This document shows positions 10,481 to 64,000 of a stretch of DNA of 64,000 bases, one piece after another. Both the position numbers and the translations under genes were made by a program. Source of the DNA: a virus (Duplodnaviria > Heunggongvirae > Uroviricota > Caudoviricetes); the IMG/VR virus record IMGVR_UViG_3300043009_000101. One strand, given 5' to 3'. A model generated the notes under the pieces. That model worked only from the letters and a program-made list of their open reading frames with translations, ran no database searches and had not been told where the DNA came from. How positions within the stretch are numbered: the stretch's first letter is position 1; each line of letters begins with the position of its first letter.

Positions 10481-10499
10481 CATGAGAAAGGAAGCCTAT

Positions 10500-17405: not shown

Positions 17406-17455
17406 TGCAAGCACGAAGTCCGGTGAATGTAATGAACCGAGGTCTCGTGCTTGCT
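17406..17455. terminator. Composite hairpin element (family A) followed by a T-run
   Basis: caagcacgaagtccggtgaatgtaatgaaccgaggtctcgtgcttg, then ttttattaattttttttt. Identical core at 53719-53769. Confidence 0.5.
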
Positions 17456-40134: not shown

Positions 40135-41343
40135 TTAAGCAAGGTTTCTTTGCATTAAATCGTATAAATAAGGTTCAAGCTGAGCAATAACATCACAAAC
40201 TAATGCATTACCCATAAGATAATATCTGGATTTCTCCGATACAGACGGAACATTTGTCCAATTATCTGGGAAAGTCATAATTCGCTCGGCTTCAATTGGT
40301 GTAATTCTGCGGATACCATTCTCATCTTCGACAAAATGAGATTCTCTGCGAACAGCGGATTCCGATGTTATCATTGTACGAGCTGGCTTTTTTAAATCAT
40401 CTGGGAAAGACATTGCCCCTTGTGTGAACACATATGGTCTGCCGTCATGCTTGCTGATGCGGTTTACTCGTTTGCCAGCTTTGGTTGTTGCAGCTTTTGT
40501 TTTTTCTTCGGGTGTTAGATACATATGTGATGGAATGTTATCGGCTGATTCAAGCACATCACCTAAAGTTACAGGCTTTGGTGTAATCGTATTTAATGGC
40601 TGCACCTTTTCCGTAGTAATGATACCCGATTCCATTAAGCCATTGGCATCAAAATCGAAACCAAACTGCATAATATCCCGCTCTGCTCGAATGTCTGTTG
40701 TTTGTACAAATCGTGTTTCTTGTAATGGCTGATATGGAAAAGCAAGTGTGAAAATATTCTCACCTTTGTATTTTCGATTCCATGCGAGAATATACACACG
40801 ATTTCTTTTTGTAGGAAAACCATAATCTGCAGCATTGATTACCCGCCAAGCTACATCGTATCCACAGTCATCAAATGCTTTTAGAATAATGCCAAAATCT
40901 CTTCCTCGCTGGTGCTTTGGTATTCGCAGCAAGTTCTCTACATTTTCTAATAAAACAAATGGTGTTTGCTTTGCTTTGAGAATATCTATAATTTCCCAGA
41001 AAAGTGTACCTCGTTTGCCTTTCAGACCTTTTCCTCCGCCAGCTACGGCTACGGAATAATCTTGACATGGAAAACCACCCACAAGCAAATCATGTTCTGG
41101 CAGAGTTGTTTTATCTATTAAAGTGATATCCTCGTTACTTACTTCGCCTCCGAAACGAGCTTTGTAACATTCGTATGCTGGCTGCATTTTTGTTTTAGGT
41201 TCGTACTGGTCTGCCCAGACAAAATCCCAATGTCCGTCATTTTCAATCGCTTTACCAGATTCATCGAAGGATTTGATATGATTTAAGCCAACACGGAAAC
41301 CGCCTACGCCAGCAAAAAGTTCACAAACTCTAAATTTTCTCAT
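40135..41343 (-). CDS. DNA (cytosine-5)-methyltransferase with no adjacent endonuclease (orphan)
   Basis: Motif I FAGVGGF, motif IV GGFPCQ, motif VI ENV; no endonuclease-like neighbour. Confidence 0.9.
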   Translation of the reverse strand: MRKFRVCELFAGVGGFRVGLNHIKSFDESGKAIENDGHWDFVWADQYEPKTKMQPAYECYKARFGGEVSNEDITLIDKTTLPEHDLLVGGFPCQDYSVAVAGGGKGLKGKRGTLFWEIIDILKAKQTPFVLLENVENLLRIPKHQRGRDFGIILKAFDDCGYDVAWRVINAADYGFPTKRNRVYILAWNRKYKGENIFTLAFPYQPLQETRFVQTTDIRAERDIMQFGFDFDANGLMESGIITTEKVQPLNTITPKPVTLGDVLESADNIPSHMYLTPEEKTKAATTKAGKRVNRISKHDGRPYVFTQGAMSFPDDLKKPARTMITSESAVRRESHFVEDENGIRRITPIEAERIMTFPDNWTNVPSVSEKSRYYLMGNALVCDVIAQLEPYLYDLMQRNLA

Positions 41344-44322: not shown

Positions 44323-44394
44323 AAGAAAACCTCCGATATAATTATAGAAGATTTATGAAGAAAATTAGGGGGGATTAAAGAAAAAGAGAAAAGC

Positions 44395-44721
44395 TTAGCT
44401 TTTCTCTTTTAGAATGAGTTTGTATTTTGTATTGGTGACGGAATCGGTGAAGTTCCATTCTCCGAGCAGATAATCTTCTGGGTAGGACATGGTGATAAAT
44501 TCGCCTTGGGCATCGTACAGCTTTACGGTTGTATAGGGATACCCACGAGCTTTGGCAATGTAATCATCTGTAATCACATCAATATATGCTTCTGTTCCGT
44601 TGGAAAATGTTGTGATGTAGCTGATATCTTCACCAAGAATCTCGTAATCGGTGCGATTGCCTGAAAGAAAGTCCTCGATGATGTAGGCTTCTTCTTTTGG
44701 AATATAATAGGTTTTCTGCAT
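44395..44721 (-). CDS. Family-X single-domain protein (MQKTYYIP...YKLILKEKS)
   Basis: Conserved N-terminal MQKT-IYIP and C-terminal W.L.DP(Y/F)TK..YTLIVK-type motifs shared with at least 18 other domains in the window. Confidence 0.7.
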   Translation of the reverse strand: MQKTYYIPKEEAYIIEDFLSGNRTDYEILGEDISYITTFSNGTEAYIDVITDDYIAKARGYPYTTVKLYDAQGEFITMSYPEDYLLGEWNFTDSVTNTKYKLILKEKS

Positions 44722-44733
44722 GGCGGTATGGTA

Positions 44734-45054
44734 TTATTTAATGATAAGAATATGTTCTACATCGTTGAAGTCTTTACCAAGATTCCATCTTCCCTCAAAC
44801 TCCCGGCATGGCTCTGTTAGTTCTTCGCACCAGCCTTGGTCATCGACAAGAAGAAACTGGCAGTATGGTTTTGCTACTCCATCGTTGATTTCAACAACGA
44901 GGTAGCAAACAAAGCCGTCATCAAATTCAATCTTTTCCCAAATGTTGTCATCTGTTGTTAATCCATATTCTTCGGCAATTTCGTTGCCTGTCATACTCAG
45001 CAATTTGTGTAAGTAATCGCTGTATCCTTTTTCAAAATGTACTGTTTTCTGCAT
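44734..45054 (-). CDS. Family-X single-domain protein (start at MQKTVHF)
   Basis: Start placed at the family-consensus MQKT, 1 nt after the upstream stop. Confidence 0.65.
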   Translation of the reverse strand: MQKTVHFEKGYSDYLHKLLSMTGNEIAEEYGLTTDDNIWEKIEFDDGFVCYLVVEINDGVAKPYCQFLLVDDQGWCEELTEPCREFEGRWNLGKDFNDVEHILIIK

Positions 45055-45055
45055 A

Positions 45056-45724
45056 TTATTTTCTCTCACTTTCTGCTTTTACAATTAATGTGTATTTTGC
45101 CTTATTATATGGGTCTTGTACTGTTCTACTTCCAAGAATAGAGGAGGAACGGCGGGATACACCTATGATTAGGCCATCTACATCATACAGCAACACAATA
45201 GCAAACGGATATTTTACTGTACTGGAGTTCTCTTCCTCGGTGTCGTACCAATCTATAATAGATGTCCATACTTGAAGAGACATTTCCAAACCGTAATCAA
45301 ACTTCTTAGTGTAATATTCAGCCAGCCTCTCACCCGTAGGAAAATTACCCTTGACTGGTGTATGAAGAATACCCTCTAACTTATTTAATTCCTCGTCTGG
45401 AATATAAATCGTAAATTTTGTGGGTTCTTTCTTTGAAAGCAAGGTATAGTTGGCCTTAGTGAACGGGTCTTGTAAAGTCCACTTACCTAAGGCAGAAGAT
45501 ATAGGCTCTGTTTCGGCAATTATAGCACCGTTTGCATTTCTTAGATATACCGTGGCATAATCAGGGTCTCCTTGCCAAGTAGATAAACTCATCTCATACC
45601 CATTATCGAATACAGCTGTATGCTCATCTAAAAATTTAGCACAACTTCTTGCTTTTTGACTGATTGTTGACGATAGGTGCAAATCATACAATTCAGTTGC
45701 TCCTAGATATATTGTTTTTTGCAT
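45056..45724 (-). CDS. Family-X tandem two-domain protein
   Basis: MQKTIYLG...ANYTLLSKKE, then a second copy TIYIPDEELNKLEGILHTP...AKYTLIVKAESERK. Confidence 0.7.
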   Translation of the reverse strand: MQKTIYLGATELYDLHLSSTISQKARSCAKFLDEHTAVFDNGYEMSLSTWQGDPDYATVYLRNANGAIIAETEPISSALGKWTLQDPFTKANYTLLSKKEPTKFTIYIPDEELNKLEGILHTPVKGNFPTGERLAEYYTKKFDYGLEMSLQVWTSIIDWYDTEEENSSTVKYPFAIVLLYDVDGLIIGVSRRSSSILGSRTVQDPYNKAKYTLIVKAESERK

Positions 45725-45743
45725 TGATGTTGCCATATTCGTA

Positions 45744-46088
45744 TTATCTCTCACTTTCTGCTTTTACTATCATGTGGTAATCTTCTTTTGTATAGGGGTC
45801 TTGCAATTTCCAGTCGCAGCGAATAAAAGACAAACATTCCGTTTCTGCAAGCACATTGACATCCTCATTGTACAGAGTTGCTTTTGAATACGGATAGTCT
45901 GTGTCGCCTTCCATATTTAGAGTGGATACCCAAATGTCAAGGTACATGGTATATCCGTTGCTAAATTCTACAAAATAATAGGTATATGGCTCGAAATTAC
46001 TTACTTTACTGCTATCTGTAATTGGTGTATTTAAAAGCTTTTCTAAGCTATTTAATTCTACATCTGGAATGTATATGGTTCGTTGCAT
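45744..46088 (-). CDS. Family-X single-domain protein (MQRTIYIPDVELNSLEKLLNTP...HMIVKAESER)
   Basis: Family motifs as above. Confidence 0.7.
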   Translation of the reverse strand: MQRTIYIPDVELNSLEKLLNTPITDSSKVSNFEPYTYYFVEFSNGYTMYLDIWVSTLNMEGDTDYPYSKATLYNEDVNVLAETECLSFIRCDWKLQDPYTKEDYHMIVKAESER

Positions 46089-46187
46089 GGGTAAACCTCC
46101 TTGGTTTTTGTACCATTAGTTATACACAATTTAGAGGGAATGAAGTGCAAAAAATAATATAGATTAGGAAAGAAAGAGGTGCAGACT

Positions 46188-46808
46188 ATGAGTTGGTTAG
46201 TAAGAGAAACTTGGTATCCAGAAAAAACATCGGCAACAGAAATTTATTCCTATTTCTATGAATCTGCTTTAAATGAGTGCTGTGGCGGAAGAGAGCCGAT
46301 TATAGATAAATTACAGACATTTAAAGGCATTTGCAACAGCTATGAGGAAGCAAAAAACTATGTGCAAAGCCATATAGCTGATGATGGCTGCGGAAGAATA
46401 CAATACTATGCTCCTGTTGGTACAAATAAAAAGGCAGAAGACCTTATGCGAAGAATCAGAAAGGAACAAGAAAGTCTTCTAGCATATACCAGAGAGCATT
46501 CCGTGACAGGACAAAAAGCGGCTTATGTTTCTTGTCCGAAATGTGGCAGCAAGCTGGCTCGTGAGTATTTGGAAAGTCGAGAGACTGGCGGTTATATCAA
46601 GCTGGAAGGAGATAATGTGCTGAGCAGAAAATATGTTGCAACTTTCTGTCCAGTATGTGGTGAAGAACTTATCAGCAATACAGGGCGAGATGTAGTTGCA
46701 AGAAAGAGACAGAAAATCAAAGACTTGCGGGATGAATATGTGCAAGCAAAAAGTAAATGCAAGAAAGAAATCCGCTGGTATGTTTATATGCAAGCATACT
46801 TGGGATAG
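46188..46808 (+). CDS. Hypothetical protein with two CxxC zinc-ribbon motifs
   Basis: AAGAGGTG RBS before ATG at 46188; CPKCGSKL...CPVCGEEL; the only plus-strand gene in this island. Confidence 0.55.
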   Translation: MSWLVRETWYPEKTSATEIYSYFYESALNECCGGREPIIDKLQTFKGICNSYEEAKNYVQSHIADDGCGRIQYYAPVGTNKKAEDLMRRIRKEQESLLAYTREHSVTGQKAAYVSCPKCGSKLAREYLESRETGGYIKLEGDNVLSRKYVATFCPVCGEELISNTGRDVVARKRQKIKDLRDEYVQAKSKCKKEIRWYVYMQAYLG

Positions 46809-46883
46809 ATGTGAAAGAAGAAAAGAAGAAAAATGACAGGCTTACAGCCTGTCCTTTTTCTAGTTGGGGGTGGTGTGGCAGAG

Positions 46884-47612
46884 CTAGACAGTTTCTACGG
46901 TTAAAGTAAACTGTCCTCTGTTTTTGGTTTGCAATTCATAGAAGCCAAGAATGGTTTTTGTTTTCTCAACTGTGGCTGCTAGAATAGAATGTTCTGTGAG
47001 CAAGTCGATATGAAGCAGCGGATATTCCTCGCTGGCATGGTACTGGATATAGAAATGTGCATCTACATCCTCACCCATTTCAATTCCCTTTTCCCATAGA
47101 ATATCTCCGTCTTGGATACCCATGCTCGCAAGCATAGGAGAAGAACGAAGAAAAATTCCATCTACAAGCTTGGCTTCTTTCTTTTCAAAGCCTACTTTGA
47201 CTTCATTGCCGTATCGACTGTATTTGTAATGCTTGCTGCGAATGCCCATATACTCCATGCCTGATACTTCTTGGTCTTGCACGATGACACGGTAGTTGTT
47301 GCCAGTAATTGGTTCTTTAATGGTATATGTGCCTAGAATCGTAGATGGCTTTGGTTTTTTGGTTTTTGCAAGCAGCTGTGCAGAGGAATCGAATAGATAA
47401 GCAACAACGGAAGGCTGGTTGAAGCCTTCACTAGAACCTAAAACAATAATCTGCATGAATGTTCCGTCTGGAAATGGTACTTGATAGCTGGCTAAACCGT
47501 GAAAAGTGTCTAAGCCTACTGCTTCGAGTATTCCTGTACCGCAAGACATATATAGTGCTATATTTTCTATATCTTCCTTGGGAAGTCGAATGATTTTCTG
47601 AAAAGACTGCAT
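46884..47612 (-). CDS. Family-X related protein (242 aa; N-terminal family domain plus C-terminal extension)
   Basis: MQSFQKIIRLPKEDIENI..., VVAYLFDSSAQLLAKT..., NNYRVIVQDQE match family positions. Confidence 0.55.
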   Translation of the reverse strand: MQSFQKIIRLPKEDIENIALYMSCGTGILEAVGLDTFHGLASYQVPFPDGTFMQIIVLGSSEGFNQPSVVAYLFDSSAQLLAKTKKPKPSTILGTYTIKEPITGNNYRVIVQDQEVSGMEYMGIRSKHYKYSRYGNEVKVGFEKKEAKLVDGIFLRSSPMLASMGIQDGDILWEKGIEMGEDVDAHFYIQYHASEEYPLLHIDLLTEHSILAATVEKTKTILGFYELQTKNRGQFTLTVETV

Positions 47613-47697
47613 GAGAAAAAGCCCTCCTAAAATTTCTGTGTAATACTATATATAATAGGAAATTTGGAGAGCTTGCTTGTGTGTTGGAATATAAAAA

Positions 47698-48552
47698 TTA
47701 TTTCAATTTGTTAAGAATACCCGCTTGCAAATCATGCAGATTATACAAATGCGGAATGGAATTGAAAACATCTTGCAGAGTTTTCTTGGAGCTGAGCCAG
47801 CCGTTGCCGTCTGTGAACCAAACGAATACGGGCTGCGGATTGTCAGAAGCTGGCGGATTGGAAGTGATTTGCTGAGAAATCAGCTTGTAGCTTCTCGCTG
47901 TTTCAGAAATCTTCGAGCCGTGGGTGGCATAGAAATTGGTTTCGATTAGGTAGATATGCTTGTTGCGAACTAGTGCAAAATCGAATTTCTTTGTTGTGAG
48001 GTAAGATAAATCTAAACCAAACTGTTTCTTTAAGAATGGAAGGGTTGGTTCTTTGAAATAATCTTTATTTGGAAGAAGGTGGGAAGATGTGAAATAGGAT
48101 TCGACAATTTCTTCCATCTTGTTTCCACTTCGGTTCTTACGGGCATTGGTATCTAATCCAACTTCGATACCCAGTGCATAATCGTAAAGATTGTGAATGT
48201 TGTGGTTTTGCAGCATGTCAAACAAACCAGTTTCTTTCATGAACTCTATGTAATCTTCGGTGGTATTTACTGTATTGATATTGTCGAAGTCGAACTGCTT
48301 TGCCTGAACGGAAAGCTGGCTGGTGCGAATTGCAAGAAGATACGGTATCACTTTGAGTGATTGCGGATAGGTTTCGCAGATATATCGGAAATCTTGCTCG
48401 ATGTTGGAACTGCCAATTAGGGAGTTTAGAAGATTGAGTTCCACTTTGTACTGAGCAAGATGCTCGTAAACTTTGTTGAAATCGACAAAATAATCATAGG
48501 TGGCTAAGTTTGGTGTGAATGTTGCTAACCATTCGTTGAAATCCCTTTCCAT
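47698..48552 (-). CDS. Type II restriction endonuclease, DpnII/MboI family
   Basis: FNEWL...KVY...LNSLIGSSNIEQDF...IYLIETNFY..GSKISETARSYKLI...HLYNLHDLQAGILNKLK matches my recollection of R.DpnII end to end; AAGGAGG RBS. Confidence 0.7.
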   Translation of the reverse strand: MERDFNEWLATFTPNLATYDYFVDFNKVYEHLAQYKVELNLLNSLIGSSNIEQDFRYICETYPQSLKVIPYLLAIRTSQLSVQAKQFDFDNINTVNTTEDYIEFMKETGLFDMLQNHNIHNLYDYALGIEVGLDTNARKNRSGNKMEEIVESYFTSSHLLPNKDYFKEPTLPFLKKQFGLDLSYLTTKKFDFALVRNKHIYLIETNFYATHGSKISETARSYKLISQQITSNPPASDNPQPVFVWFTDGNGWLSSKKTLQDVFNSIPHLYNLHDLQAGILNKLK

Positions 48553-48649
48553 AGAAATCCTCCTTAAAAAACTTTCTAGGTATATTGTAGCAAGGAGGAG
48601 GGTTGAGTGATGTTGGAACGGGTGGCTAGTGGCTAGTGGTTAGACTGAG

Positions 48650-49639
48650 CTAGATGAGATTCTCGTCTAGAAACTGCATCAATTCTTTTGCTACTGCATA
48701 CACAACATCTACAGTAACAGCATTGCCAAACTGCTTATATGCCTGAGTGTCGGATACAACTTGCTGCCAATCACTTGGGAAACCTTGCAGCTTTCTCGCT
48801 TCATTTGGTGTCAGTCTGCGAATATTCGTTTTAGTTTCATCACAATACCGTTCATAATTCACATTATCCGTATAATAATTGTCTTGGCTTGCTCTGTGCA
48901 TTTTGTGCATAGTTGCAACTAAGGTGTTGCAAATCTTATTATCTATTGTTGGCTCAGCCTTAAAGTTTTTCGTTCCCTCGCTCATAAGTGCTTTGATAAG
49001 TACTTTGCTGACAAAATACTTGGCAGGAACATCTTCATCAAGCAAATCTTGTGCAGTCAACTGCAATGGCTGGGTCTGTGGCTGTGGGAAAGCAAACTGT
49101 GTATCTTTAAAAGCATCTTTTCGCAAAGCTACAATAAATACCCGCTTCCTTCTTTGTGGAATGCCAAAATCTGCTGTATTCAGAACTTGATAATTTACTG
49201 CATACCCGCATTCTTCGAGTTCGTCTTTGATTCTTTGGAATGTCTTGCCTTTGTCGTGTGTAACAAGGTTCTTTACATTTTCCAAAACAACTGCTTTGGG
49301 ATGATGCTTGAGTATAATGCTCTTAATAATAAAGAACAATGCCCCTCTGCCTTTTTCATCCTCAAAACCTTGCCTTTTGCCAATACTAGAAAATGGCTGG
49401 CATGGAAATCCGCCAACTAAAATGTCGTGAGGCGGAATTTCATCTAAATGCTCTGTAATATCTCCTTCTACAATGTCTGTGCGAATGTTGGCTCGAAATG
49501 TCTGGCATGCATATTTGTCTATGTCATTGGACCAAACCATATCAAAGCCTGCATTGGAAAAGGCTAAATCAAATCCGCCAATGCCTGCAAAAAGGCTCAC
49601 TGTTTTGTATTTGTAAGTTGTATGTGTAATTCTTTCCAT
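48650..49639 (-). CDS. DNA (cytosine-5)-methyltransferase (M subunit of the adjacent DpnII-like endonuclease)
   Basis: FAGIGGF, GGFPCQPFS, ENV motifs; immediately upstream of the endonuclease on the same strand. Confidence 0.9.
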   Translation of the reverse strand: MERITHTTYKYKTVSLFAGIGGFDLAFSNAGFDMVWSNDIDKYACQTFRANIRTDIVEGDITEHLDEIPPHDILVGGFPCQPFSSIGKRQGFEDEKGRGALFFIIKSIILKHHPKAVVLENVKNLVTHDKGKTFQRIKDELEECGYAVNYQVLNTADFGIPQRRKRVFIVALRKDAFKDTQFAFPQPQTQPLQLTAQDLLDEDVPAKYFVSKVLIKALMSEGTKNFKAEPTIDNKICNTLVATMHKMHRASQDNYYTDNVNYERYCDETKTNIRRLTPNEARKLQGFPSDWQQVVSDTQAYKQFGNAVTVDVVYAVAKELMQFLDENLI

Positions 49640-49757
49640 TGAAAAACCTCCTGTATATTGTAGATTTTTTCTGTTGGACGGAATGATGCAGGGTTTCGTT
49701 TGGTGCTATGAAATATGCAAAAAAAAGATACCCTTGGGTATCTTGCTGAGGTGAAAA

Positions 49758-50096
49758 TTAGGTTCTTACTTTTACATTTACGGTATAATGCTCACCTTCG
49801 ATGCCTTCCAAAGTCCAAGACTTGAAGAAATCTTCTTCCCAATTGCTTTCATCTACAAGCTGGTCATCTGCATCGAGATTGTACAGCACGGCTCTTGCCC
49901 ATTGTTTCAGGCCGCCGGGTGCAACGATAAGTTCTATGTCCATAATGTAAGTATGTGGGAATTCCACGGATTCGGTATAGGCAACTCCGTCTTGCAAACC
50001 GTATTTGGTGAAAACTTCTTCACTGGTAGAATCTAAAATATCATTAATTTTTCTGGCTGTTTGCTTTGGTACATATACTGTCTTTTCTGGCATGGC
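49758..50096 (-). CDS. Family-X single-domain protein (start at MPEKTVYVPKQ, AAGGAGG RBS)
   Basis: The track ORF is longer (192 aa), but the RBS and family N-terminus put the start at 50096; C-terminus YTVNVKVRT. Confidence 0.65.
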   Translation of the reverse strand, partial: AMPEKTVYVPKQTARKINDILDSTSEEVFTKYGLQDGVAYTESVEFPHTYIMDIELIVAPGGLKQWARAVLYNLDADDQLVDESNWEEDFFKSWTLEGIEGEHYTVNVKVRT

Positions 50097-50419
50097 TTGT
50101 TCCTCCTTGTGCTTATTAAAGCTACAACTATTATAGAAAAATTGAACGGGCGAAAACGAGAAACAGATGAAGATGCGGGTGCGACAAATCGGGGAATATG
50201 GAACGGGTATAGAGAGTTGGAACAAGATAATTGTGGGCGGAAATAGGTTGAGGGAAGATTTAGCTAAAACAAAAAGGCGAAATGTAGCTATCCGTAGGAT
50301 AGGTCGCATTTCGCCTGTAATATTATATTGAAACAAATTCTGCTGAGTGCAGTGAATACTAGTATAAGACTACTAGTGCTAGTGAAATACCCAAGCTGGC
50401 TATATGGCTGGTGAGGGGC

Positions 50420-50863
50420 TTACAGAGTGATTTGCAGCAACACTTTCTTGCGATTGGGTGTGATAAAATGCTGGGTTATCGTAAAGCCAAAGTACTCGCT
50501 GAAAAAATCATATGCATCGCCTTTGGGCAATGGTTCAAACGGTATTGGTTCAAAGGTCAAAGTATCATAGTCGAAAGTGTATGCTCCATCTGTCAGATGC
50601 TCCGCCAATTCCTGTGCTTCTGCTAGTGTGAGAGATATGTATTGTCGCATCGGCATCTGGTGGCAGCGATTGGAGTAACAGCCGGGGTTGATTTGCAAGG
50701 CGGCTGGGTGTAGGGAAAAGTTTTCTATGGTAAAATCATAGAAATCTTTTAGATAAACTATCTTTGCTTTCTTCGTGCGGGCTTTGGTTTTGGATAAGAT
50801 GTAGGCAAAAGATTCTGGGTTTGGAAAAATGACGGAAACAACCTCGTAGCCGTATCGTTTCAT
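50420..50863 (-). CDS. Hypothetical protein (147 aa)
   Basis: AAAGGAG RBS before MKRYGYEVVSV; no motif recognised. Confidence 0.5.
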   Translation of the reverse strand: MKRYGYEVVSVIFPNPESFAYILSKTKARTKKAKIVYLKDFYDFTIENFSLHPAALQINPGCYSNRCHQMPMRQYISLTLAEAQELAEHLTDGAYTFDYDTLTFEPIPFEPLPKGDAYDFFSEYFGFTITQHFITPNRKKVLLQITL

Positions 50864-50953
50864 ATGAGGGAACTCCTTTCGTTGCATATTCTATACATAG
50901 TATAGGAGTTTTAAAAGAATATTGCTAGAGAAGAGTTCTGTTGGAGCATTGTA

Positions 50954-51316
50954 TTATTGCAGCTGCTTGCGGTATTGGGTATATGAAACAATCCAGAGGA
51001 ATACGAGCAATAAGGCTTCCAGCTGGTAGAACATATAATATAGAGTAAAGAAATCATAGGATGTGGCTAGTGTGGTGATAAGGCAAAGTGCGAGTAATAC
51101 CGTAAGGCAATCTGTAGTGAGATGACGAAGCTGATGCTTGTAGGAGGAATTACTCTTGTACATACAGAACAGCAAAATACCAATATCTGCAAGTAAAGTG
51201 AAAATGGTGAATGCACTGCTTCTGCTGGAAATAGAAAGCCATGGGCAGCTGATGAATGCAATAGATATGGCTGTGATTAGAAAGATGCGGCTGAAGATAA
51301 TGTTGCATTTAGACAT
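50954..51316 (-). CDS. Hypothetical small membrane protein (about 4 TM helices)
   Basis: AAAGGAG RBS before MSKCNIIF; the upstream part of the track ORF is translated repeat DNA. Confidence 0.4.
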   Translation of the reverse strand: MSKCNIIFSRIFLITAISIAFISCPWLSISSRSSAFTIFTLLADIGILLFCMYKSNSSYKHQLRHLTTDCLTVLLALCLITTLATSYDFFTLYYMFYQLEALLLVFLWIVSYTQYRKQLQ

Positions 51317-51472
51317 GGTTTGGGTTAGTTCTCCTTTGCTTAGATAATATAGATATAGTTTATCACGAGCAATAGGAAATCTGGGACGGAACGGAGAGTT
51401 TGGTGCAGATAGGTTTGGGGCAAGATAGGGTTGGGTGCAGATAGAACTAGGGCAAGATAGAGCTGAAACAAG

Positions 51473-51582
51473 AAAAGGCACGAGGCTTGGTCGGACGGGA
51501 TAAATCCCTTGAACAAGGGATTTATCAAAATAGGGAAGCATATGCTTCCCTATTTTAGTCAGTCCGAGGTTTCGTGCCTTTA
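51473..51582. repeat. Composite hairpin element (family A) with two nested inner hairpins
   Basis: aaaaggcacgagg...gggataaatccctt-gaac-aagggatttatc...tagggaagca-tatgcttcccta...ccgaggtttcgtgccttt. Confidence 0.55.
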
Positions 51583-51584
51583 AT

Positions 51585-52313
51585 CTATTTTTCTTTCTTA
51601 AAATTCTTAGATATTACTGCATTAAATTGCTGCGGGTCGAACCAATAGCAGCCATTACAAACCTTGGTGTGTTCATCACCAAAAATATAGCTCTCGGAGT
51701 ACCCTAGCTGCTTAGCATCATATCGTATGCCTGATTCTCTGCATTCTTTACAATGTTGTCGCTTAGCTATATTTACTGCTTTGCTAAGTACTTGGAAATC
51801 TTCCAATTTTTGTTCGTTTGGATTCTCGTTTTCTCTATCATCATATCTACCGTTCTTATGGTCTATTTCCATACCGTTACTGGATATTATATCTAATACT
51901 GCACAGTGCTTGCCTTTAAGTGCTTTCTGCACATCTGTAGAAATGGTACGGGCAGATTTTGTTCGATTCTTATTGAAGCCATCTAATTTTACAGAAGCTA
52001 CTCTTGGGCCTTTCTTCGTTCTTGTAATTAAATATCGTTTACCTAGATAAGAAACAGAATCTCTAGCCCAAGTACAACCATTGGTTGTTTCAAAACTAGA
52101 ATGTATTGTTTTGAGATATTCTATACTGAGCTTCTTGCCAATACCATACTCCACATCAGATAATATTTCAAAAATCTGGCCAAGATATGCAGAAGTTAGG
52201 TGTATATCTTGCAAATTTGTCTGCACATAGGTAATTAGAGCTTGTTTATCTTGTTGCTGAAAAAGAAGTTCAAGTTGTGCAATCTGTGTTTCGTTTAAGT
52301 CCTTCATATGCAA
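51585..52313 (-). CDS. HNH-family endonuclease (candidate type II restriction endonuclease)
   Basis: EIDHKNGRYDD...NPNEQ...HCKEC (HNH/His-Me core) plus CxxC pairs; 6 nt downstream of the C5-methyltransferase gene. Confidence 0.65.
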   Translation of the reverse strand: MHMKDLNETQIAQLELLFQQQDKQALITYVQTNLQDIHLTSAYLGQIFEILSDVEYGIGKKLSIEYLKTIHSSFETTNGCTWARDSVSYLGKRYLITRTKKGPRVASVKLDGFNKNRTKSARTISTDVQKALKGKHCAVLDIISSNGMEIDHKNGRYDDRENENPNEQKLEDFQVLSKAVNIAKRQHCKECRESGIRYDAKQLGYSESYIFGDEHTKVCNGCYWFDPQQFNAVISKNFKKEK

Positions 52314-52319
52314 ATTTCC

Positions 52320-53516
52320 CTATCCCACATATTCGAAAGTAAACAATTTCTCAAAAATACGAACCATTACAGGCACAACAATAGAATTACCAAACTGTTT
52401 GCGGGCTTTGGAATCAGATTGCACAGATAAAATCTTCGTAATATTTTCCTCTGAAACACCCATTAGTCTGCCGAATTCTTTTACAGATAATTTACGGACA
52501 TTGCCTGTGGCATCAATTACAGCAGTTACAGTATTGTGGTTCTCTTTAATCGTAGGAACAATACCGTTGATGCTCACTATCTTGCTGGAATCGAACTTAC
52601 TCTTCATATAATTGCCTAAGGAAACAATACTATTAAACCGTTCTAGTTGGTTTATGAAATCTGTATCTTTATACTTTTCTGCACAGCTTTTAGCATACTC
52701 GTTGTGAATATATAATCTGGATTCAGGCTGAATGTCTGTATCTAAATAATCCCGCAAATATTTTGTAAGCGAAATCGGTTCAGGAAAAGTGTACGGAGTT
52801 GGATGATTTAGAATACTCACCATATAGCACCGTTCCCTATTCTGTGGTATATTTCCATATTCTGCTGCATTCAGAACCTGATACGAATTTGTATACCCGA
52901 TTGATTCCAAATAAGCACACCAATCATCAAAATCTGCTTTGTTTCGCTTGGAAATGATTTGCTTTACATTTTCCATAAACAGAATCTGCGGAAGTTCTTT
53001 CCGTGAAGCAATCAATTCGTTGAACAACCTTTCAATTTCCCAAAGCAAACCGCTCCTCGTACCACTGCCTTTTTTCATGCCTCGCAAATTCCCACTCATA
53101 GACAAATCTACACAAGGAAAACTGTATGTGAGCATGTAAGTATAAGTTTCTGTGTTGGTGATACCCAGTTCTTCTGCCTGTATTCTTGTGATACTGCCAA
53201 GGTTGTGTGTGGCTGCAAATTCGTTGTAAACTTTTCTGCACCAAGGTTCTTTTTTCTTCAACAATGCTTCTTTGCTTAATGCCTGTTTGTCGTCTATGGT
53301 GATTTGCAAGTTGGCAAGATAGTTCACCACTTCTTCGAAACTGAGATTGGCAGATGCATCTGGTATGACTTCGGTATGCACGGCTGCATACGATGTGTTG
53401 GCTGCTACATTCCATTCAGATATGCGGTAATGCTCGTAATCTATATCTAATTGGTCTAGTGCCATTGCTTGGCTGCCATAGCCTGCAAATAGTTCTATTA
53501 ATCTTACTTTCTTCAT
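52320..53516 (-). CDS. DNA (cytosine-5)-methyltransferase with variant motif I
   Basis: LFAGYGS (motif I), SFPCVDLS (PC), FMENV; 398 aa. Confidence 0.85.
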   Translation of the reverse strand: MKKVRLIELFAGYGSQAMALDQLDIDYEHYRISEWNVAANTSYAAVHTEVIPDASANLSFEEVVNYLANLQITIDDKQALSKEALLKKKEPWCRKVYNEFAATHNLGSITRIQAEELGITNTETYTYMLTYSFPCVDLSMSGNLRGMKKGSGTRSGLLWEIERLFNELIASRKELPQILFMENVKQIISKRNKADFDDWCAYLESIGYTNSYQVLNAAEYGNIPQNRERCYMVSILNHPTPYTFPEPISLTKYLRDYLDTDIQPESRLYIHNEYAKSCAEKYKDTDFINQLERFNSIVSLGNYMKSKFDSSKIVSINGIVPTIKENHNTVTAVIDATGNVRKLSVKEFGRLMGVSEENITKILSVQSDSKARKQFGNSIVVPVMVRIFEKLFTFEYVG

Positions 53517-53584
53517 GCATATTCCCTTTCTCTATGTTTAGATTAACATAGTGGAAATGGAAAACTGGTTGGAACAGATGGTTG

Positions 53585-53715
53585 GGTGCAGATAGTACTG
53601 ACACAAGATAGTACTGCCACAAGATAGTACTGCCACAAGATAGTACTGCCACAAGATAGTACTGCCACAAGATAGTACTGCCACAAGATAGTACTGCCAC
53701 AAGATAGTACTGCCA
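53585..53715. repeat. Tandem repeat, 18 bp x about 7 (ccacaagatagtactg...)
   Basis: Directly visible; translated artefact ORFs cover it. Confidence 0.95.
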
Positions 53716-53718
53716 CAA

Positions 53719-53769
53719 GAAAAGGCACGAAGTCCGGTGAATGTAATGAACCGAGGTCTCGTGCCTTTT
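53719..53769 (-). terminator. Family-A hairpin acting as a terminator for the upstream 3-gene array
   Basis: aaaaggcacgaagtccggtgaatgtaatgaaccgaggtctcgtgcctttt; on the minus strand the stem is followed by TTTTCTTG. Confidence 0.55.
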
Positions 53770-53781
53770 ACTTACTGAATA

Positions 53782-54159
53782 TTATTTTGTTGTTTTTACC
53801 TTTACGGTATAGGAATTCAGAACAGTATTTCCAAACTCGTCTGTGGATACATCTTCGAACTGGTACTCATCGAAAAAATCTAAATCGGATTGGTAAGATA
53901 ATTCCACGGAATCGTCTTCTGTACGATAGAATACCGCAAGAATATCTGGATAGGCGGAAGCATCATCTGGCACAATAATTTTAATCTGGGCATAATGTCC
54001 GTCAGCAAATTTTGCTTCGTAAAGTTCTTCCTCATACCGATGCATGCCGTATTTATTATAGATTTGCTCGCCTGTGCTGTTGAGTAAGTTCTTTACTGAC
54101 TTAGTTTCGGCGGGTGTGAGTTTGATTGTTGATGTGTATTTATGTGCATATTTAGGCAT
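53782..54159 (-). CDS. Family-X (subfamily 2) protein, MPKYAHKYTSTIKLT...NSYTVKVKTTK
   Basis: First of three tandem paralogues. Confidence 0.65.
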   Translation of the reverse strand: MPKYAHKYTSTIKLTPAETKSVKNLLNSTGEQIYNKYGMHRYEEELYEAKFADGHYAQIKIIVPDDASAYPDILAVFYRTEDDSVELSYQSDLDFFDEYQFEDVSTDEFGNTVLNSYTVKVKTTK

Positions 54160-54168
54160 TGGGACGGT

Positions 54169-54582
54169 TTACTTCTCCTTTTCTGTATATGGCTTTATTC
54201 TGACTGTATATAGATTGCGAGCGGGATTGCCCGTGGATTCCGTGGTATCTAGCTCAAATACCCAGTTCCCAAAGAAATAGGATTCTTCACCCGTTAGAGA
54301 CTGATAGTCCAGCGGGCTGTCTGTATCTGTGGGAAGATAAAATTCTGCTTCTGTATATGGTGCATACATGTCTAAGCTGGGTGAATTCAGAGAAATGACA
54401 GCAATATGCCCGTCTGTGAATGTGGCTTGGCATTGATACAATACGGTACGATATGTGCCGTTGTAGAGGGTATCTATCTGCTCGTCTGTGAGATTTTCCC
54501 AGTCTAGTATTTCTTGGACTAGGTTCGTATCTTCTTTGCTTAACTTGATTGTTGCTTGATATTTGTGAAGATATCTTGACAT
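54169..54582 (-). CDS. Family-X (subfamily 2) protein, MSRYLHKYQATIKLS...LYTVRIKPY
   Basis: Tandem paralogue. Confidence 0.65.
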   Translation of the reverse strand: MSRYLHKYQATIKLSKEDTNLVQEILDWENLTDEQIDTLYNGTYRTVLYQCQATFTDGHIAVISLNSPSLDMYAPYTEAEFYLPTDTDSPLDYQSLTGEESYFFGNWVFELDTTESTGNPARNLYTVRIKPYTEKEK

Positions 54583-54587
54583 AGTTT

Positions 54588-54989
54588 TTATTCGTCTCCG
54601 AAAGGCTTTACAATAGCCGTATACAGATTTACAACAGGTTCGCCGTTGGCATCGGTTGTTTCTACTTCAAACTTCCAATCTTGAATTATATAAGGATATG
54701 GACTTGTTGCAATTTTGGAATCCGTGACAATACCATTTCTTATTGCATAAAAATGTGCTTCACCATAGATTACAGAACCAAACTGTGTGGCACAAAGGGA
54801 AACATCTGCAATATGCCCATCACGAAACTTCAATCTGCAAGAATACAATACTAATTTATCTGTTGCCTGCTGCATAGGTGCAAGCTGCTCTGCTGTTAAA
54901 TTCTCGGGCTTATTCACAAAAAGCATATAGTTAGAATCTGCTTCACTCAGCTTGATTGTAGATTGATATTTATGAAGATATTTTGGCAT
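54588..54989 (-). CDS. Family-X (subfamily 2) protein, MPKYLHKYQSTIKLS...LYTAIVKPF
   Basis: Tandem paralogue. Confidence 0.65.
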   Translation of the reverse strand: MPKYLHKYQSTIKLSEADSNYMLFVNKPENLTAEQLAPMQQATDKLVLYSCRLKFRDGHIADVSLCATQFGSVIYGEAHFYAIRNGIVTDSKIATSPYPYIIQDWKFEVETTDANGEPVVNLYTAIVKPFGDE

Positions 54990-55061
54990 GGTAAGAATCG
55001 CCTCGCTTTCACTTTATACAATAGATATAGAAAATTTGGGTGAGTGGGAGTGAAAAAAAAA

Positions 55062-55502
55062 TCAGAGCTTGTATGCATCTTGATTTCTATGCGGGATACC
55101 CAGATGAAGCTGATGCATCAAATGTTCTCTGTGGGCATGCAGCCGCTGCTCGTAAATCTGTCTGTGGGTGTCTATCTCGGACGGAATGATATGCTGGTCT
55201 GCATTGAGTGCTACCTTTGTACTGGAACTGGAGAGGGCGGTTTCTAAGGTATAAATCGCTGCTGCTGTAATGGTGATGTCCACTCTGGCTTGCATAGAAT
55301 ATCGCATGGCTGTTTCCAGCTTGCATGTAATCTTGCCAAATCGAAACAAGCCTGTGGTTAGATTAATATCGAAATCTGTGCAAGCTATCAGTCTGTTATG
55401 GCTGAGTATATAGGCTGTGCCACCTTGCTTGCCGAGATAGACAAGGGATGGTCCGTATTCGAATATGTCTGGTTTGATGATGTCTCCTACTTGCAGTCGC
55501 AT
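55062..55502 (-). CDS. Hypothetical protein (146 aa, GC-rich) sitting between two paralogue arrays
   Basis: AAAGGAG RBS; about 50% GC against about 36% for its neighbours. Confidence 0.5.
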   Translation of the reverse strand: MRLQVGDIIKPDIFEYGPSLVYLGKQGGTAYILSHNRLIACTDFDINLTTGLFRFGKITCKLETAMRYSMQARVDITITAAAIYTLETALSSSSTKVALNADQHIIPSEIDTHRQIYEQRLHAHREHLMHQLHLGIPHRNQDAYKL

Positions 55503-55639
55503 GATGGCTCCTTTCTGGGTTGTATGTAATTATATTGGTTTCTTGATTGTAAAGAAAGTATAGCACGAAAAGAGAGGTGTGGTAAAGGTGGAAAAGGAAA
55601 CAAAAAAGGAACAGCTGTTGGCTGTTCCTTTTTTTGTAA

Positions 55640-56419
55640 TTATTCTGCTATTCCAATCTGGAAATGGAAAGGTTCCTTAGAATCCTCTTTTACTTTTGTA
55701 AATTCATAATCACCCAAGATATTTGCAGAAGGATAGTCCTCGGAAGCCATATGATATGCAACCTGTTCCACTGCGTCCACATTGTCGTCTACATAGTATA
55801 GCAACTGTATTTGTACATAAGGATAATATTCAGCACGATTTGCTTCAATAGAAATTCTTAAATACCGATAGCCAGTAGAATCTATTACTATATTTTCTTG
55901 CCACAATGTTTTTGTTTCTTCTGTATTATCTGAATTACCTGAGAAACAAATACTTGTAGGTGTTTTAAGTAATAAATTTAGCTTTTGTACAACAGTTTTT
56001 GGCATACAAAATTTATTATCTCCAGAATAGTAGAAAGCATAGAAAACAGGCAAGTTGAAAGTGTTGCAAACATAACCCTTTGTATTTGGACTAATCCATC
56101 CTTTACAATTATCATCTAAGATTAAAGTATAGGTGTCTTGTGTATAAGGGTCTTTTACTACATATTTTCCAAGAAAATCTTCATGGGGTGTACTCATATC
56201 CAACATATTGGAATTTTCGTCATACAATACGGCTGCATAAGCAACATATTCATCTTCACCCGGGTCATAAGGTGTTACAACTACTGTAAAACCCGTTGGG
56301 AATTGCCAGCTTTTAGCCACAAGAGGTGCATATTTAGTGAAATCACAGGCTTCCATCCATTCTATATGCAGCCTGTGCATTCTTGGATTTAAATGTAATG
56401 TTTTTTGGTAATTTTGCAT
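55640..56419 (-). CDS. Family-X (subfamily 3) two-domain protein, MQNYQKTLHLNP...
   Basis: N-terminal domain ...LGKYVVKDPYTQDTYTLILDDN; second domain begins ...MPKTVVQKLNLLLKTP. Confidence 0.7.
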   Translation of the reverse strand: MQNYQKTLHLNPRMHRLHIEWMEACDFTKYAPLVAKSWQFPTGFTVVVTPYDPGEDEYVAYAAVLYDENSNMLDMSTPHEDFLGKYVVKDPYTQDTYTLILDDNCKGWISPNTKGYVCNTFNLPVFYAFYYSGDNKFCMPKTVVQKLNLLLKTPTSICFSGNSDNTEETKTLWQENIVIDSTGYRYLRISIEANRAEYYPYVQIQLLYYVDDNVDAVEQVAYHMASEDYPSANILGDYEFTKVKEDSKEPFHFQIGIAE

Positions 56420-56442
56420 AGTGTATTTTCTCCTTTATTTAA

Positions 56443-57195
56443 TTAGTCTGTTGTTCCGATATAGAAATTATAGAAATCTGGTAAGCAATAGCCTTGCTCA
56501 TTTGCAAGTTCATATGCCCCAAGTATATTTGCAGGTTTATTTTCTGTGGTTTTATGTGCTGTAGCTTTATGTGTACCAAATTGGCCTTTATCACCATCTG
56601 GGCCATCTGGTGTCAACAACTGAAGTAATACATAGGGATAATTCTCGTTACGGTCTGCTTCAATAGTCATTCTCAGATACCAATACCCGTCAGCATCAAC
56701 GGTTACATTCTTTTCCCACAAAATTTTATTTTTACTAGTTAGTTTACCGTGGGCTTCAACTGGTGTTTGCAGTAGGATATTCAACTTGTTTACTTCACTC
56801 TTTGGCATATACAGCTGCTCAAACAAACCAGTAGTGTCCCCTTTCAAAGCATAACCTTCGGTGTTGAATGTAATCCAATCCTTACAATTATTATCAAGAA
56901 TTAAGGTATAAACATCTTGTGTATACGGATTTGTAACTGTATATTTACCAAGATAATCTGTATGTGTTTCACTCATATTGATGAGATTGGAATTAGCATC
57001 CCAAAGATATGCGACAAAACCTACATTATTATCATTTGTTCCAAAAACACTTACTTGCATTATCAGACCTGTTGGAAACTGGTAACTTTGTACAAAATAA
57101 GAGGCTACATATTCTACATAATCTTGGCTTAGTGCATATAAAGCAGAAAGCACATCTGTTGGTTTTAAATGTAATGTTTTTTGATATTTTTGCAT
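56443..57195 (-). CDS. Family-X (subfamily 3) two-domain protein, MQKYQKTLHLKP...
   Basis: AAAGGAG RBS; LYMPKSEVNKLNILLQTPVEAHGKL second domain. Confidence 0.7.
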   Translation of the reverse strand: MQKYQKTLHLKPTDVLSALYALSQDYVEYVASYFVQSYQFPTGLIMQVSVFGTNDNNVGFVAYLWDANSNLINMSETHTDYLGKYTVTNPYTQDVYTLILDNNCKDWITFNTEGYALKGDTTGLFEQLYMPKSEVNKLNILLQTPVEAHGKLTSKNKILWEKNVTVDADGYWYLRMTIEADRNENYPYVLLQLLTPDGPDGDKGQFGTHKATAHKTTENKPANILGAYELANEQGYCLPDFYNFYIGTTD

Positions 57196-57217
57196 AAAAA
57201 GTTTCTCCTTTATTTAA

Positions 57218-57937
57218 TTATTCTGTTGTTCCGATATAGAAATCTGTAGGTAAATCCACATCAGATATATTCATAAGTTCATATGCACCAAGAATATTTG
57301 CGGGTTTATTCTCGGTTGCTTTATTTGTACCAACTTGGTACTCATCGCCATCGAGTGTCAGCACCTGAAGTTGTACATAAGGATAATACTCTGTACTGTC
57401 TGCTTCAATAGAGATTCTCATATACCAATATCCTTCATTGTCAACAGTTACATTTCTTTTCCACAAAGTTTTAGATTTACTCATTAGTTTTCCGTGAGCT
57501 TCAACTGGTGTTTGCAACAAGATATTTAGTTTCTGTACTTCACTCTTTGGCATATACAGATGCTTGCACCAATCTTTGTTCCATTTTAAAACATATCCCG
57601 TTGTGTTTGGAGTAATCCAACCCTTACAATTATCATCAAGAATCAAGGTATAAACATCTTGTGTATAAGGATTTGTAACTGTATATTTACCGAGATAATC
57701 TGTATGTGCATCGCTCATATTGATGAGATTTGAATTAGCATCCCAAAGATATGCCACAAAGCCTACATTATTATCATCAGCACTAAACACACTTACCTGC
57801 ATTATGAGACCTGTGGGAAACTGATAGCTTTGTGCTAAGTCAGGAGCTGCCGTTAAAGTAGATTCCCTTATGTCTTTATTCAAATCGTATAGCACATTGA
57901 GTGGGCTTAAATGCAATGTCTTTTGATATTTTTGCAT
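57218..57937 (-). CDS. Family-X (subfamily 3) two-domain protein, MQKYQKTLHLSP...
   Basis: Same architecture, about 80% identical to its neighbours. Confidence 0.7.
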   Translation of the reverse strand: MQKYQKTLHLSPLNVLYDLNKDIRESTLTAAPDLAQSYQFPTGLIMQVSVFSADDNNVGFVAYLWDANSNLINMSDAHTDYLGKYTVTNPYTQDVYTLILDDNCKGWITPNTTGYVLKWNKDWCKHLYMPKSEVQKLNILLQTPVEAHGKLMSKSKTLWKRNVTVDNEGYWYMRISIEADSTEYYPYVQLQVLTLDGDEYQVGTNKATENKPANILGAYELMNISDVDLPTDFYIGTTE

Positions 57938-57954
57938 AAAAAGTTTATTCTTTC

Positions 57955-58686
57955 TTACTTTTCAGTTGTTCCGATATAGAAATCTGTTAGTAAATCAGAC
58001 TCATAGTTTTCACTAAATTCATATACACCAAGAATATTTGCAGGTTTATTCTCAGTTGCTTTATGTACACCAACTTGAGCTAATAAATCATCCGCACATA
58101 GCACTTGAAGTTGTACATAAGGATAATCCTCTGTAATATCTGCTTCAATAGACATAATCATATAATAAAATCCTTCCATATCAATAGGTACATACCTTTC
58201 CCACAAAGTTTTATTTGTATGAGTTAGTTTACCATGAGCTTCAACTGGTGTTTGTAGCAATATGTTCAGTCTGTGTACTTCACTCTTGGGCATATATAGC
58301 TGTGTACACATAGTTGCATGGAAAGCATTATAGTTCACAACATACCCTTCTGTGTTTGTAGTAATCCACCCCTTGCAATTATCATCAAGAATCAAGGTAT
58401 AAACATCTTGTGTATAAGGATTTGTAACTGTATATTTACCAAGATACTCTGTATGAACATCACTCATATTGATGAGATTGGAATTAGCATCCCAAAGATA
58501 TGCTACGAAACCCAAGGTAGTGTTATCAGAACTACACACACTTACTTGCAATATAAGACCTGTTGGAAACTGATAACTTTGTACTAAATGTCTTGCTGCA
58601 TCCGCAGCATTATCAATTTGGCCATTATTTAAAACAAAGAGTACTCCGCGGGGATTTAAATGTAATGTTTTTTGGTAAGTTTGCAT
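57955..58686 (-). CDS. Family-X (subfamily 3) two-domain protein (start at MQTYQKTLHLNP)
   Basis: GGAGAAAGGAA RBS before ATG at 58686 (the track ORF starts 24 codons earlier). Confidence 0.7.
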   Translation of the reverse strand: MQTYQKTLHLNPRGVLFVLNNGQIDNAADAARHLVQSYQFPTGLILQVSVCSSDNTTLGFVAYLWDANSNLINMSDVHTEYLGKYTVTNPYTQDVYTLILDDNCKGWITTNTEGYVVNYNAFHATMCTQLYMPKSEVHRLNILLQTPVEAHGKLTHTNKTLWERYVPIDMEGFYYMIMSIEADITEDYPYVQLQVLCADDLLAQVGVHKATENKPANILGVYEFSENYESDLLTDFYIGTTEK

Positions 58687-61330: not shown

Positions 61331-61654
61331 ACACCGCAAGCTTGCGGTGTGCCTGCTCTGGCCGAAGACAAAAAATAGAACGAATATCTGCGGTTAGCTT
61401 ACTTCGTGCAATAGCATATACCCGCATAAACCTGTCTGATTGTACTTGTATCTTTCCGCTAAATCGCTGTCTGCCAAATAATATTCTCTGTCTGCCAAAT
61501 AATATTCTCTGTCTGCAAAATAAAATGCAAGAATGAAATCGTATGCAACTTGCTGCAAAAAAAATACCCTCGACTAATCGAATCCTGTCTGCCACCCACT
61601 GCATGGGGAATATTTCTGATGCCTAACCTGGGCTAAGAGGTATAGCGGCTTGCG

Positions 61655-61795: not shown

Positions 61796-62452
61796 GTGAA
61801 CTGGCAGAAAACAACCTTTGTGGCAAAAATACCCGCACTTGTTCCCATGATTTCCATGATTTCCCTAATCGCCTGACCGCCTGACCGCCTAACCTGTGCG
61901 GTGCATTATATTCTCTTTCGCCTCACATTATAAATGGAAGTATTTGCGATATGCCTGATTAGATGATATGCCTGAATATATCTATGCCTGAATACACAGG
62001 CGGAGGCGAGACGGAGCAGTGCGGAGTACTCGGTCTACCGCCTGTGCTATCTAGCAACTTGATATTAAGTGCATCGAAATGTAGATTGCATCGAAATGTC
62101 CATTTCGCCTGATAGATATAGGGAATTGCAGACAGTACTGGAAATAGTCAGGCTAGGTGCAGACAGTACTGGGAATAGTTAGGCTGGGCAGACATACAGG
62201 GCAAGCGGAATGAAAGCAAGGTATTCAGAAACTAGATACCCTCGCTGTGTTGGTGTGCAGTGAAGTAGTATGCAGAGAATGCAAAGTATAGTATTAGAAT
62301 AAAGATAGTACAGGCTAGGGAAAGATAAATGGGGAGAAAAGGCGGAAGAAAGATAAGGCGGGAATAGAAAGATGAAGAGAATACGGATGAAAACAGTGAT
62401 GGTTGAAGATAAGACAAAGCACCCGCCTTGGCGGGTGCTTTGGCTTTGCTGA

Positions 62453-63579: not shown

Positions 63580-64000
63580 AGAACAGTAGGGCTTCGATTC
63601 TATAAGCCAAGGCAGTAGGGCTTCATTTAGATAAGCCAAGGCGGTAGGGCTTCATTTAGATAAGCCAAAGTAAAACTAAGCCAAGAGCAGACGAGCAGTC
63701 TTTAGGTCGCTCGTCTGCCTGTATTATTAAAAGCAGTCAGGCTTTAAGCAGATAGGCCAAGGCGGTTGGGCTTCATTTAGATATGCCAAGGCAGTAGGGC
63801 TTCATTTAGATATGCCAAGGCAGTAGGGCTTCATTTAGATATGCCAAGGCAGTAGGGCTTCATTTAGATATGCCAAGGCAGTAGGGCTTCATTTAGATAT
63901 GCCAAGGTAAAACTAAGCCAAGAGCAGACGAGCAGTCTTTAGGTCGCTCGTCTGCCTGTATTATTAAAAGCAGTCAGGCTTTAAGCAGATAGGCCAAGGC
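63580..64000. repeat. Higher-order tandem repeat: 28-bp units (gccaaggcagtagggcttcatttagata) in about 230-bp super-units bounded by hairpins
   Basis: At least 10 copies of the 28-mer; boundary element 'taaaactaagccaagagcagacgagcagtctttaggtcgctcgtctgcctgtattattaa' occurs twice; runs to the window edge. Confidence 0.9.

Follow-up and report, generated by a model that had tools for sequence, protein, structure and literature searches.

We find that a 64,000-nucleotide stretch of DNA from a virus of the Caudoviricetes (IMG/VR record IMGVR_UViG_3300043009_000101; the whole stretch is called the window below) encodes one acidic domain of about 105 residues 19 times over, in 13 minus-strand genes lying between positions 44395 and 58686. 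With moderate confidence, we read this array as a lineage-specific expansion that came about through old duplications and two fusions, is held under purifying selection and possibly has a protein-binding role. The count of 19 domains had been given in a preliminary description made from the letters of the DNA, and a profile scan of every open reading frame (ORF) in the window confirms it. A profile built from outside relatives only was compared with 644 ORF segments of at least 40 aa and matched exactly 13 genes, in which 14 domains were recognized by the external-only hidden Markov model (HMM) at E values between 4e-27 and 2.6e-5. In profile–profile comparison by hhalign, the groups of window domains matched the external-only profile at 98.7–99.8% probability, the second domain of the subfamily-3 type of gene (domain 2, discussed below) apart. 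The three subfamilies into which the genes had been sorted also match one another: subfamily 1 matches subfamily 2 at 96.7% and domain 1 of subfamily 3 at 98.4%, and subfamily 2 matches domain 1 of subfamily 3 at 93.6%. The AlphaFold model of the protein of gene 45744–46088 has a predicted local distance difference test (pLDDT) score of 91.4 and consists of a strand, a helix and six strands. Spurious ORFs were considered as an explanation of the family genes and rejected, given a ratio of nonsynonymous to synonymous substitution rates (dN/dS) below 1 and hundreds of homologues.

The first two genes of the array each hold one domain. Gene 44395–44721 encodes 108 aa with an isoelectric point (pI) of 4.3, matches the external-only profile at E 1.9e-18 and has a terminator-like hairpin at 44382–44410. 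Gene 44734–45054 encodes 106 aa from the ATG at 45054, or 111 aa from a GTG at 45069 (external-only profile, E 6e-20). It is followed by the two-copy gene 45056–45736 and by 45744–46088, a single-domain gene of 114 aa that is the nearest relative of both halves of 45056–45736. Another single-domain gene, 49758–50093, encodes 111 aa from the ATG at 50093, which has a good Shine–Dalgarno motif, and matches the external-only profile at E 5e-23. The subfamily-2 trio of single-domain genes occupies 53782–54159 (125 aa), 54169–54582 (137 aa) and 54588–54989 (133 aa). Its members are 32–41% identical to each other, share an N-terminal YxHKY extension as well as an insert ahead of the last strand, and match the external profile at an hhalign probability of 99.1%.

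Gene 45056–45736 is the simpler of the two kinds of fusion. It encodes 222 aa from the ATG at 45724 or 226 aa from the ATG at 45736, the latter better suited to the upstream Shine–Dalgarno-like motif. The earlier suggestion that it is an internal tandem duplication is borne out insofar as it contains two complete copies of the domain, copy a (45422–45724) and copy b (45059–45421), which follow each other with no linker and are 33% identical over their full length of 114 aa (E 1e-15). Each is 36–38% identical to the adjacent 45744–46088. At the junction (LLSKKEP/TKFTIYIP) a normal C terminus, ending in YTLLSKKEP, runs straight into a normal N terminus, TKFTIYIPDEEL, which may be compared with MQKTIYIP. 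Two complete gene units would thus have been joined end to end. We suggest read-through fusion of adjacent array genes as the route, and because neighbouring genes around this point are 1 nt apart or overlap by 11 nt, and genes 45744 and 45056 have a common 21-nt 3′ end, GTAAAAGCAGAAAGTGAGAGA (VKAESER), loss of a stop codon between adjacent paralogues is at least as likely as internal duplication. Against a firm choice stands the fact that copy a, copy b and 45744–46088 are about equidistant, so that read-through fusion and internal tandem duplication are indistinguishable. By either route the fusion is an old event, since its halves are merely 33% identical.

The four subfamily-3 genes, 55640–56419 (259 aa), 56443–57195 (250 aa), 57218–57937 (239 aa) and 57955–58686 (243 aa), are arranged head to tail with 17–23 nt between them, and a bidirectional terminator-like hairpin (55602–55634; a 15-pair stem and then a T run) lies just downstream. 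Each is composed of a domain 1 of about 103 aa, a linker of 21–30 aa (NCKGWI..NT.GY) and a domain 2 of 115–125 aa. These genes had been described as fusions of two diverged copies of the domain. For domain 1 this is clear (hhalign, 98.4–98.7%), and domain 2 is probably a strongly diverged copy of the family domain, as judged from profile–profile probabilities of 81–85%, with all four family motifs aligned, and from modelled structure. The original list of fusions held these four and missed a fifth two-domain gene, 46884–47612 (242 aa), which distantly shares the architecture of subfamily 3; its domain 1 is encoded by 47271–47612, its linker by 47202–47270 and its domain 2 by 46887–47201. It is 25–29% identical to the quartet across both domains; the alignment with 56443–57195 gives 27.6% identity over 250 aa (E 1e-14). 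Across the five proteins domain 2 measures 105–125 aa, and the domains 1 group together, as do the domains 2. Because 46884–47612 aligns to 56443–57195 over both domains, the subfamily-3 fusion is one old event that took place before the five genes diverged.

Several lines of evidence bear on the identity of domain 2. As had been noticed, it restarts like the N terminus of a single-domain protein: its beginning, LYMPKSEVNKLNILLQTPV, is identical to IYIPDEELNKLEGILHTPV at 10 of 22 positions (45%, E 5e-5). When the two halves are set against the single-domain family, domain 1 is homologous, and domain 2 aligns with the external-only profile in register over 91 columns (hhalign probability 81%, E 1.2e-5) with a score of 34.2, above all 150 column shuffles (11.0 ± 2.2, maximum 20.7; about 10 standard deviations) and above the reversed alignment (11.6). 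The AlphaFold model of a two-domain protein also has the order strand, helix, six strands in both halves. Weighing against common descent, the quality of this model is moderate (pLDDT 77, one good model in five), HMMER by itself gives domain 2 a non-significant 7–10 bits, direct comparison of domain 1 with domain 2 detects no similarity (BLASTP, E 1.1; hhalign, 1.6%), and the homology is carried by profile–profile comparison together with predicted structure. The null results of BLASTP and hhalign and the low HMMER scores would equally fit C-terminal halves that are an unrelated module, the N-terminal match (LYMPKSEV.KLN.LLQTPV) being a short convergent or chance motif. Such a module would also fit the BLASTP likeness to single-domain genes, which falls mostly within the first 22–75 residues, and the finding of zero outside proteins with a recognizable domain 2. 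We think this improbable, as the hhalign score lies far above the shuffle maximum and the score of the reversed alignment, and the predicted domain 2 repeats the family order of secondary structure. Taking domain 2 as a diverged copy, the subfamily-3 fusion would be a second event, much older than the one at 45056 and predating the split of 46884–47612 from subfamily 3; the fused second domain would then have diverged almost beyond sequence recognition, and whole two-domain genes would have been duplicated three times afterwards.

The gene 46884–47612 has an interrupted orthologue in a related strain. A JGI contig of 1751 bp from data set 3300035517 (L020) matches window positions 47202–47679, and the similarity ends exactly at 47202/47201, the boundary between linker and domain 2. 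The sequence past the breakpoint holds a hairpin and, on the opposite strand, an OrfB_IS605 (TnpB-type) gene, inside which the contig ends. Owing to this IS605/TnpB insertion at the boundary, the orthologue consists of domain 1 and the linker (145 aa).

The view that the family grew by repeated duplication, with domain fusions, stands; the duplications are older than first thought. Neighbouring subfamily-3 paralogues had been put at about 80% identity, which is too high: the three closest (56443–57195, 57218–57937 and 57955–58686) are 64–71% identical in protein and 74–78% in DNA, domain 1 alone being 69–80% identical, and 55640–56419 is 44–49% identical in protein to the other three, its neighbour included. 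Synonymous divergence (dS) among the three closest is 0.61–0.67, or 0.50 for domain 2 alone, and a dS of at least 0.5 in the youngest pairs means that there was no recent duplication. Neither duplication nor fusion can thus be called ongoing, as the preliminary description had it, with a dS of 0.5–0.7 for the youngest copies, halves of 45056–45736 that are 33% identical and a single ancestral fusion in subfamily 3.

Part of the family appears to have a history outside this genome. Genes 44395–44721, 44734–45054 and 49758–50093 are closer to proteins of other metagenomic elements than to any gene of the window: for 44395–44721 the best outside match scores 52 bits vs 40 bits for the best window match, for 49758–50093 the figures are 57 and 28 bits, and 44734–45054 is 39% identical to an external protein (P0032) vs 29% to its best window paralogue. 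With nearer relatives outside, these three genes are not products of recent local duplication, and because of their better outside matches, part of the family diversity predates this phage genome or was acquired. Subfamily 1 was considered as a single local clade and rejected, three of its members being nearer to outside sequences. The local clades are the group of 45056a, 45056b and 45744, the subfamily-2 trio and the subfamily-3 quartet. We accordingly trace the set to three or more older lineages, which other mobile elements have as well, together with local tandem gene duplications.

Contigs that carry the locus give a further view of its stability. Five were recovered by exact protein look-up, and in gene content each matches the window at 100% identity. 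No copy-number differences between strains were seen among the recovered contigs, the structural variant observed being the insertion sequence (IS) described above, and protein scans and exact DNA patterns found no related strains for a copy-number check in the viral and metagenome collections.

Selection on the copies is purifying. The tests cover three to four paralogues and one orthologue pair, at the level of genes and domains. Among the three closest paralogues dN/dS is 0.29–0.37 gene-wide and 0.15–0.44 by domain, with none above 0.44. The orthologue in the related strain, whose DNA matches that of 46884–47612 at 97.5% identity across promoter, domain 1 and linker, differs from the window by nine synonymous and zero non-synonymous changes in 137 codons. 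We also calculated raw, uncorrected proportions of non-synonymous (pN) and synonymous (pS) differences in 27 sliding windows of 20 codons, each holding few sites. In the beta-sheet core pN is near zero; in the first helix region pN/pS is 0.6–0.9, on few sites, and only the windows at columns 180–200 and 250–280 reach pN ≥ pS, in some pairs and again on few sites. Purifying selection thus maintains the copies and acts on the beta-sheet core, and constraint is looser in the first helix region, the linker and the C-terminal tail.

These results bear directly on the arms race proposed in the preliminary description, in which duplication and fusion continue and the copies are driven apart by diversifying (positive) selection. 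Such a process would fit the many co-located paralogues with their divergence of 25–75% identity, the concentration of variation among the youngest copies in the first helix, linker and C-terminal tail, where pN nears or exceeds pS, and the interruption of one member by an IS in a related strain, which implies that the genes turn over. The dN/dS values, gene-wide and per domain, and the orthologue pair speak against diversifying selection, while the dS of at least 0.5 in the youngest pairs, the age of both fusions (the halves of 45056–45736 at 33% identity, the one ancestral fusion of subfamily 3) and the identical gene content of the five locus-bearing contigs speak against continuing change. 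We therefore assign the arms race little probability and retain old duplication under purifying selection.

A check for gene conversion, which had also been proposed, was modestly positive. A block of 132 nt (44 codons) at the end of domain 1, located at 56890–57021 on the minus strand in 56443–57195, with equivalent blocks at 57632–57763 and 58381–58512, has a DNA identity of 91–93% between the three close paralogues vs 74–78% gene-wide. Its pS is 0.18–0.25 vs about 0.45–0.50 in the rest of the gene (0.53–0.59 in the N-terminal part), and it contains an identical run of 65 nt where about 21 would be expected. The synonymous depletion has Fisher p values of 0.057, 0.003 and 0.034. This suggests either a tract converted long ago or constraint on the nucleotide sequence itself, and the latter possibility counts against conversion as such. 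If conversion is the cause, there would have been some sequence homogenization among the three youngest copies.

Outside the phage the family is large and almost without annotation. When 1.84 billion cluster representatives were searched exhaustively with a profile, 640 proteins were returned at E ≤ 1e-3, 69 of them at E ≤ 1e-10, and the metagenomic family thus numbers 640 or more such representatives. Neither window members nor outside relatives, the multi-domain ones among them, gave a match for the domain in Pfam, NCBIfam, PHROGs or PADLOC, and a sequence search of the PDB was likewise empty; in PADLOC, seven window and three outside members had no match at E ≤ 0.01. The one annotation match came from an outside fusion protein, which has a DUF5983 domain. 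Word-indexed protein searches with the window proteins returned the window's own genes only, an alignment of outside members used as the query yielded 147 proteins whose names are blank or "hypothetical protein", and when an outside member was compared by tblastn, it matched one unannotated human-gut phage and no plasmid. We found nothing relevant to the family in the literature.

Structural comparison added further relatives. Foldseek against BFVD, a collection of predicted viral structures, matched A0A8D9UHQ4, A0A8S5NGK2 and A0A1B1IUK8, uncharacterized gut-phage proteins, at E 4e-7 to 7e-5, with TM-scores of 0.61–0.75 over the whole domain and 16–20% identity. These are true relatives of the domain. 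They differ from the window array in being single genes rather than an expanded set, and one of them is labelled only "cysteine-rich protein".

Tandem repetition appears to be a habit of the family, judging by the 19 of 249 outside relatives that carry 2–4 copies of the domain per protein. The outside proteins P0012, P0015 and P0018 (677, 804 and 428 aa) have 2–4 tandem domains followed by a common C-terminal region of about 170–280 aa, for which no Pfam or PHROG match was found. In nine other genomic contexts that we inspected there is one copy (two in one phage) per 12–16 kb, and 13 genes in 14 kb are unusual. In these contexts the gene is part of an array of small co-directional genes, carried by a phage (30–291 kb) or a plasmid-like element. 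Four of the nine have a DNA methylase at a distance of about 5 kb or less, and the neighbours include DUF932, DUF4314, PcfJ, PemK and ParM-like genes.

What the domain does may be approached from its composition and surroundings. All copies are acidic, with a pI of 4.3–5.7 in the window and a median pI of 4.26 and net charge of −13 among external members. Inspection by eye of the start contexts and domain sequences found no N-terminal leader or membrane segment, and the invariant residues are core ones only, with no catalytic motif. We regard it as possible rather than probable that the domains bind proteins in the cytoplasm, as modules of host takeover or counter-defence, and that each two-domain form acts as a single-chain dimer. 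Against any such assignment, acidity and neighbourhood are weak, non-specific indicators of function, and the searches turned up no named homologue or solved structure. A more far-reaching version, which we consider unlikely, would make the domain a new and widespread scaffold for inhibitors of host defence or housekeeping in gut phages and plasmid-like elements, with each of the 13 paralogues hitting a different target and the two-domain genes forming single-chain pseudo-dimers whose halves specialize.

The chief alternative for function is that the domains are virion components (decoration, internal or ejected) whose repeats are structural. Small repeated beta-rich domains are common in virion decoration, and the genes share a strand with a block at 17.9–34.2 kb, perhaps tail or fibre genes, that encodes several very large InlB B-repeat proteins and a transglutaminase-like protein. 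The family genes, however, are interleaved with DNA methyltransferases, DpnII- and IceA-type restriction nucleases and an NAD-dependent DNA ligase, not with structural genes. Elsewhere they occur in small-gene arrays, some of them on plasmid-like contigs that also carry ParM-like and PemK genes, and they have no Ig-like or known structural-protein similarity. We judge a virion role improbable and keep to the tentative protein-binding one.

Comparison with known systems offers partial likenesses. Tandem multigene families of large viruses arise by local duplication followed by divergence, as in the poxvirus "genomic accordion". The present family resembles them in its head-to-tail arrays in an accessory region, its graded divergence (25–75%) and its possibly homogenized block, and it differs from the accordion families in having no near-identical copies, no copy-number variation among recovered contigs, purifying selection and a part of its diversity that is older than this genome. 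Like the DNA mimics Ocr and ArdA, the domains are small, acidic (pI about 4.3), presumably cytoplasmic, encoded near DNA methyltransferases and sometimes multicopy, but no sequence or fold match places them in the ArdA or Ocr families. The nearest systems listed also include cystatin-like/NTF2-like alpha+beta rolls (PDB 7jta_B, "NTF2-like nuclease/anti-CRISPR") and the Pur-alpha/Whirly fold (PDB 3k44).

The window derives from a very large phage genome of about 577 kb; metagenomic contigs that encode the 114-aa protein of 45744–46088 are as long as 576,898 bp. A megablast search of the locus against GenBank phages gave no match and no similar sequenced phage, and an Rfam scan of the whole window found zero RNA families above threshold. 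Three cytosine-type DNA methyltransferases are encoded in the window. Two are paired with nucleases, DpnII-type at 47698–49639 and IceA-type at 51585–53516, and both restriction–modification pairs are apparently complete; the third methyltransferase (40135–41343) is solitary. A near-perfect intergenic tandem repeat of the 16-bp unit AGATAGTACTGCCACA (8.2 copies, 53590–53720) lies upstream of the methyltransferase and IceA-type nuclease pair, and a related 40-nt copy of the repeat sequence occurs at 17411–17450.

The sole plus-strand gene in the array, 46179–46808, encodes a zinc-ribbon protein of 209 aa. One contig that is otherwise identical to the window (L005) is without 98 bp (46336–46433) inside this gene, a population variant that would disrupt it. 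Farther away, a protein of 450 aa with RRXRR and HNH domains (10482–11834) has an architecture that recalls IscB-type nucleases, and a T4-type RNA ligase with an adjacent kinase (AAA_33)/HD-domain protein at 14616–16852 looks like an RNA repair pair. The segment 61467–63907 is repeat-rich and raised in GC content, with a 21-bp array at 61467–61523, a 31-bp array at 62127–62194 and 29-bp tandem arrays at 63584–63668 and 63750–63907.

The evolutionary pattern of this locus is ordinary for large viral genomes: genes were duplicated in tandem and twice fused, selection is purifying, and there may have been some gene conversion. Its novelty is the family itself, which is compact and confidently foldable, has hundreds of metagenomic relatives and has no entry in the annotation and structure databases searched. 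Since single-domain, freshly fused and anciently fused members are adjacent to one another, the locus offers a natural series for following how a domain diverges after fusion. And because an unannotated family is present here in 19 copies within 14 kb, beside methyltransferases and restriction enzymes, the array is a reasonable place to search for new host-takeover or counter-defence proteins.

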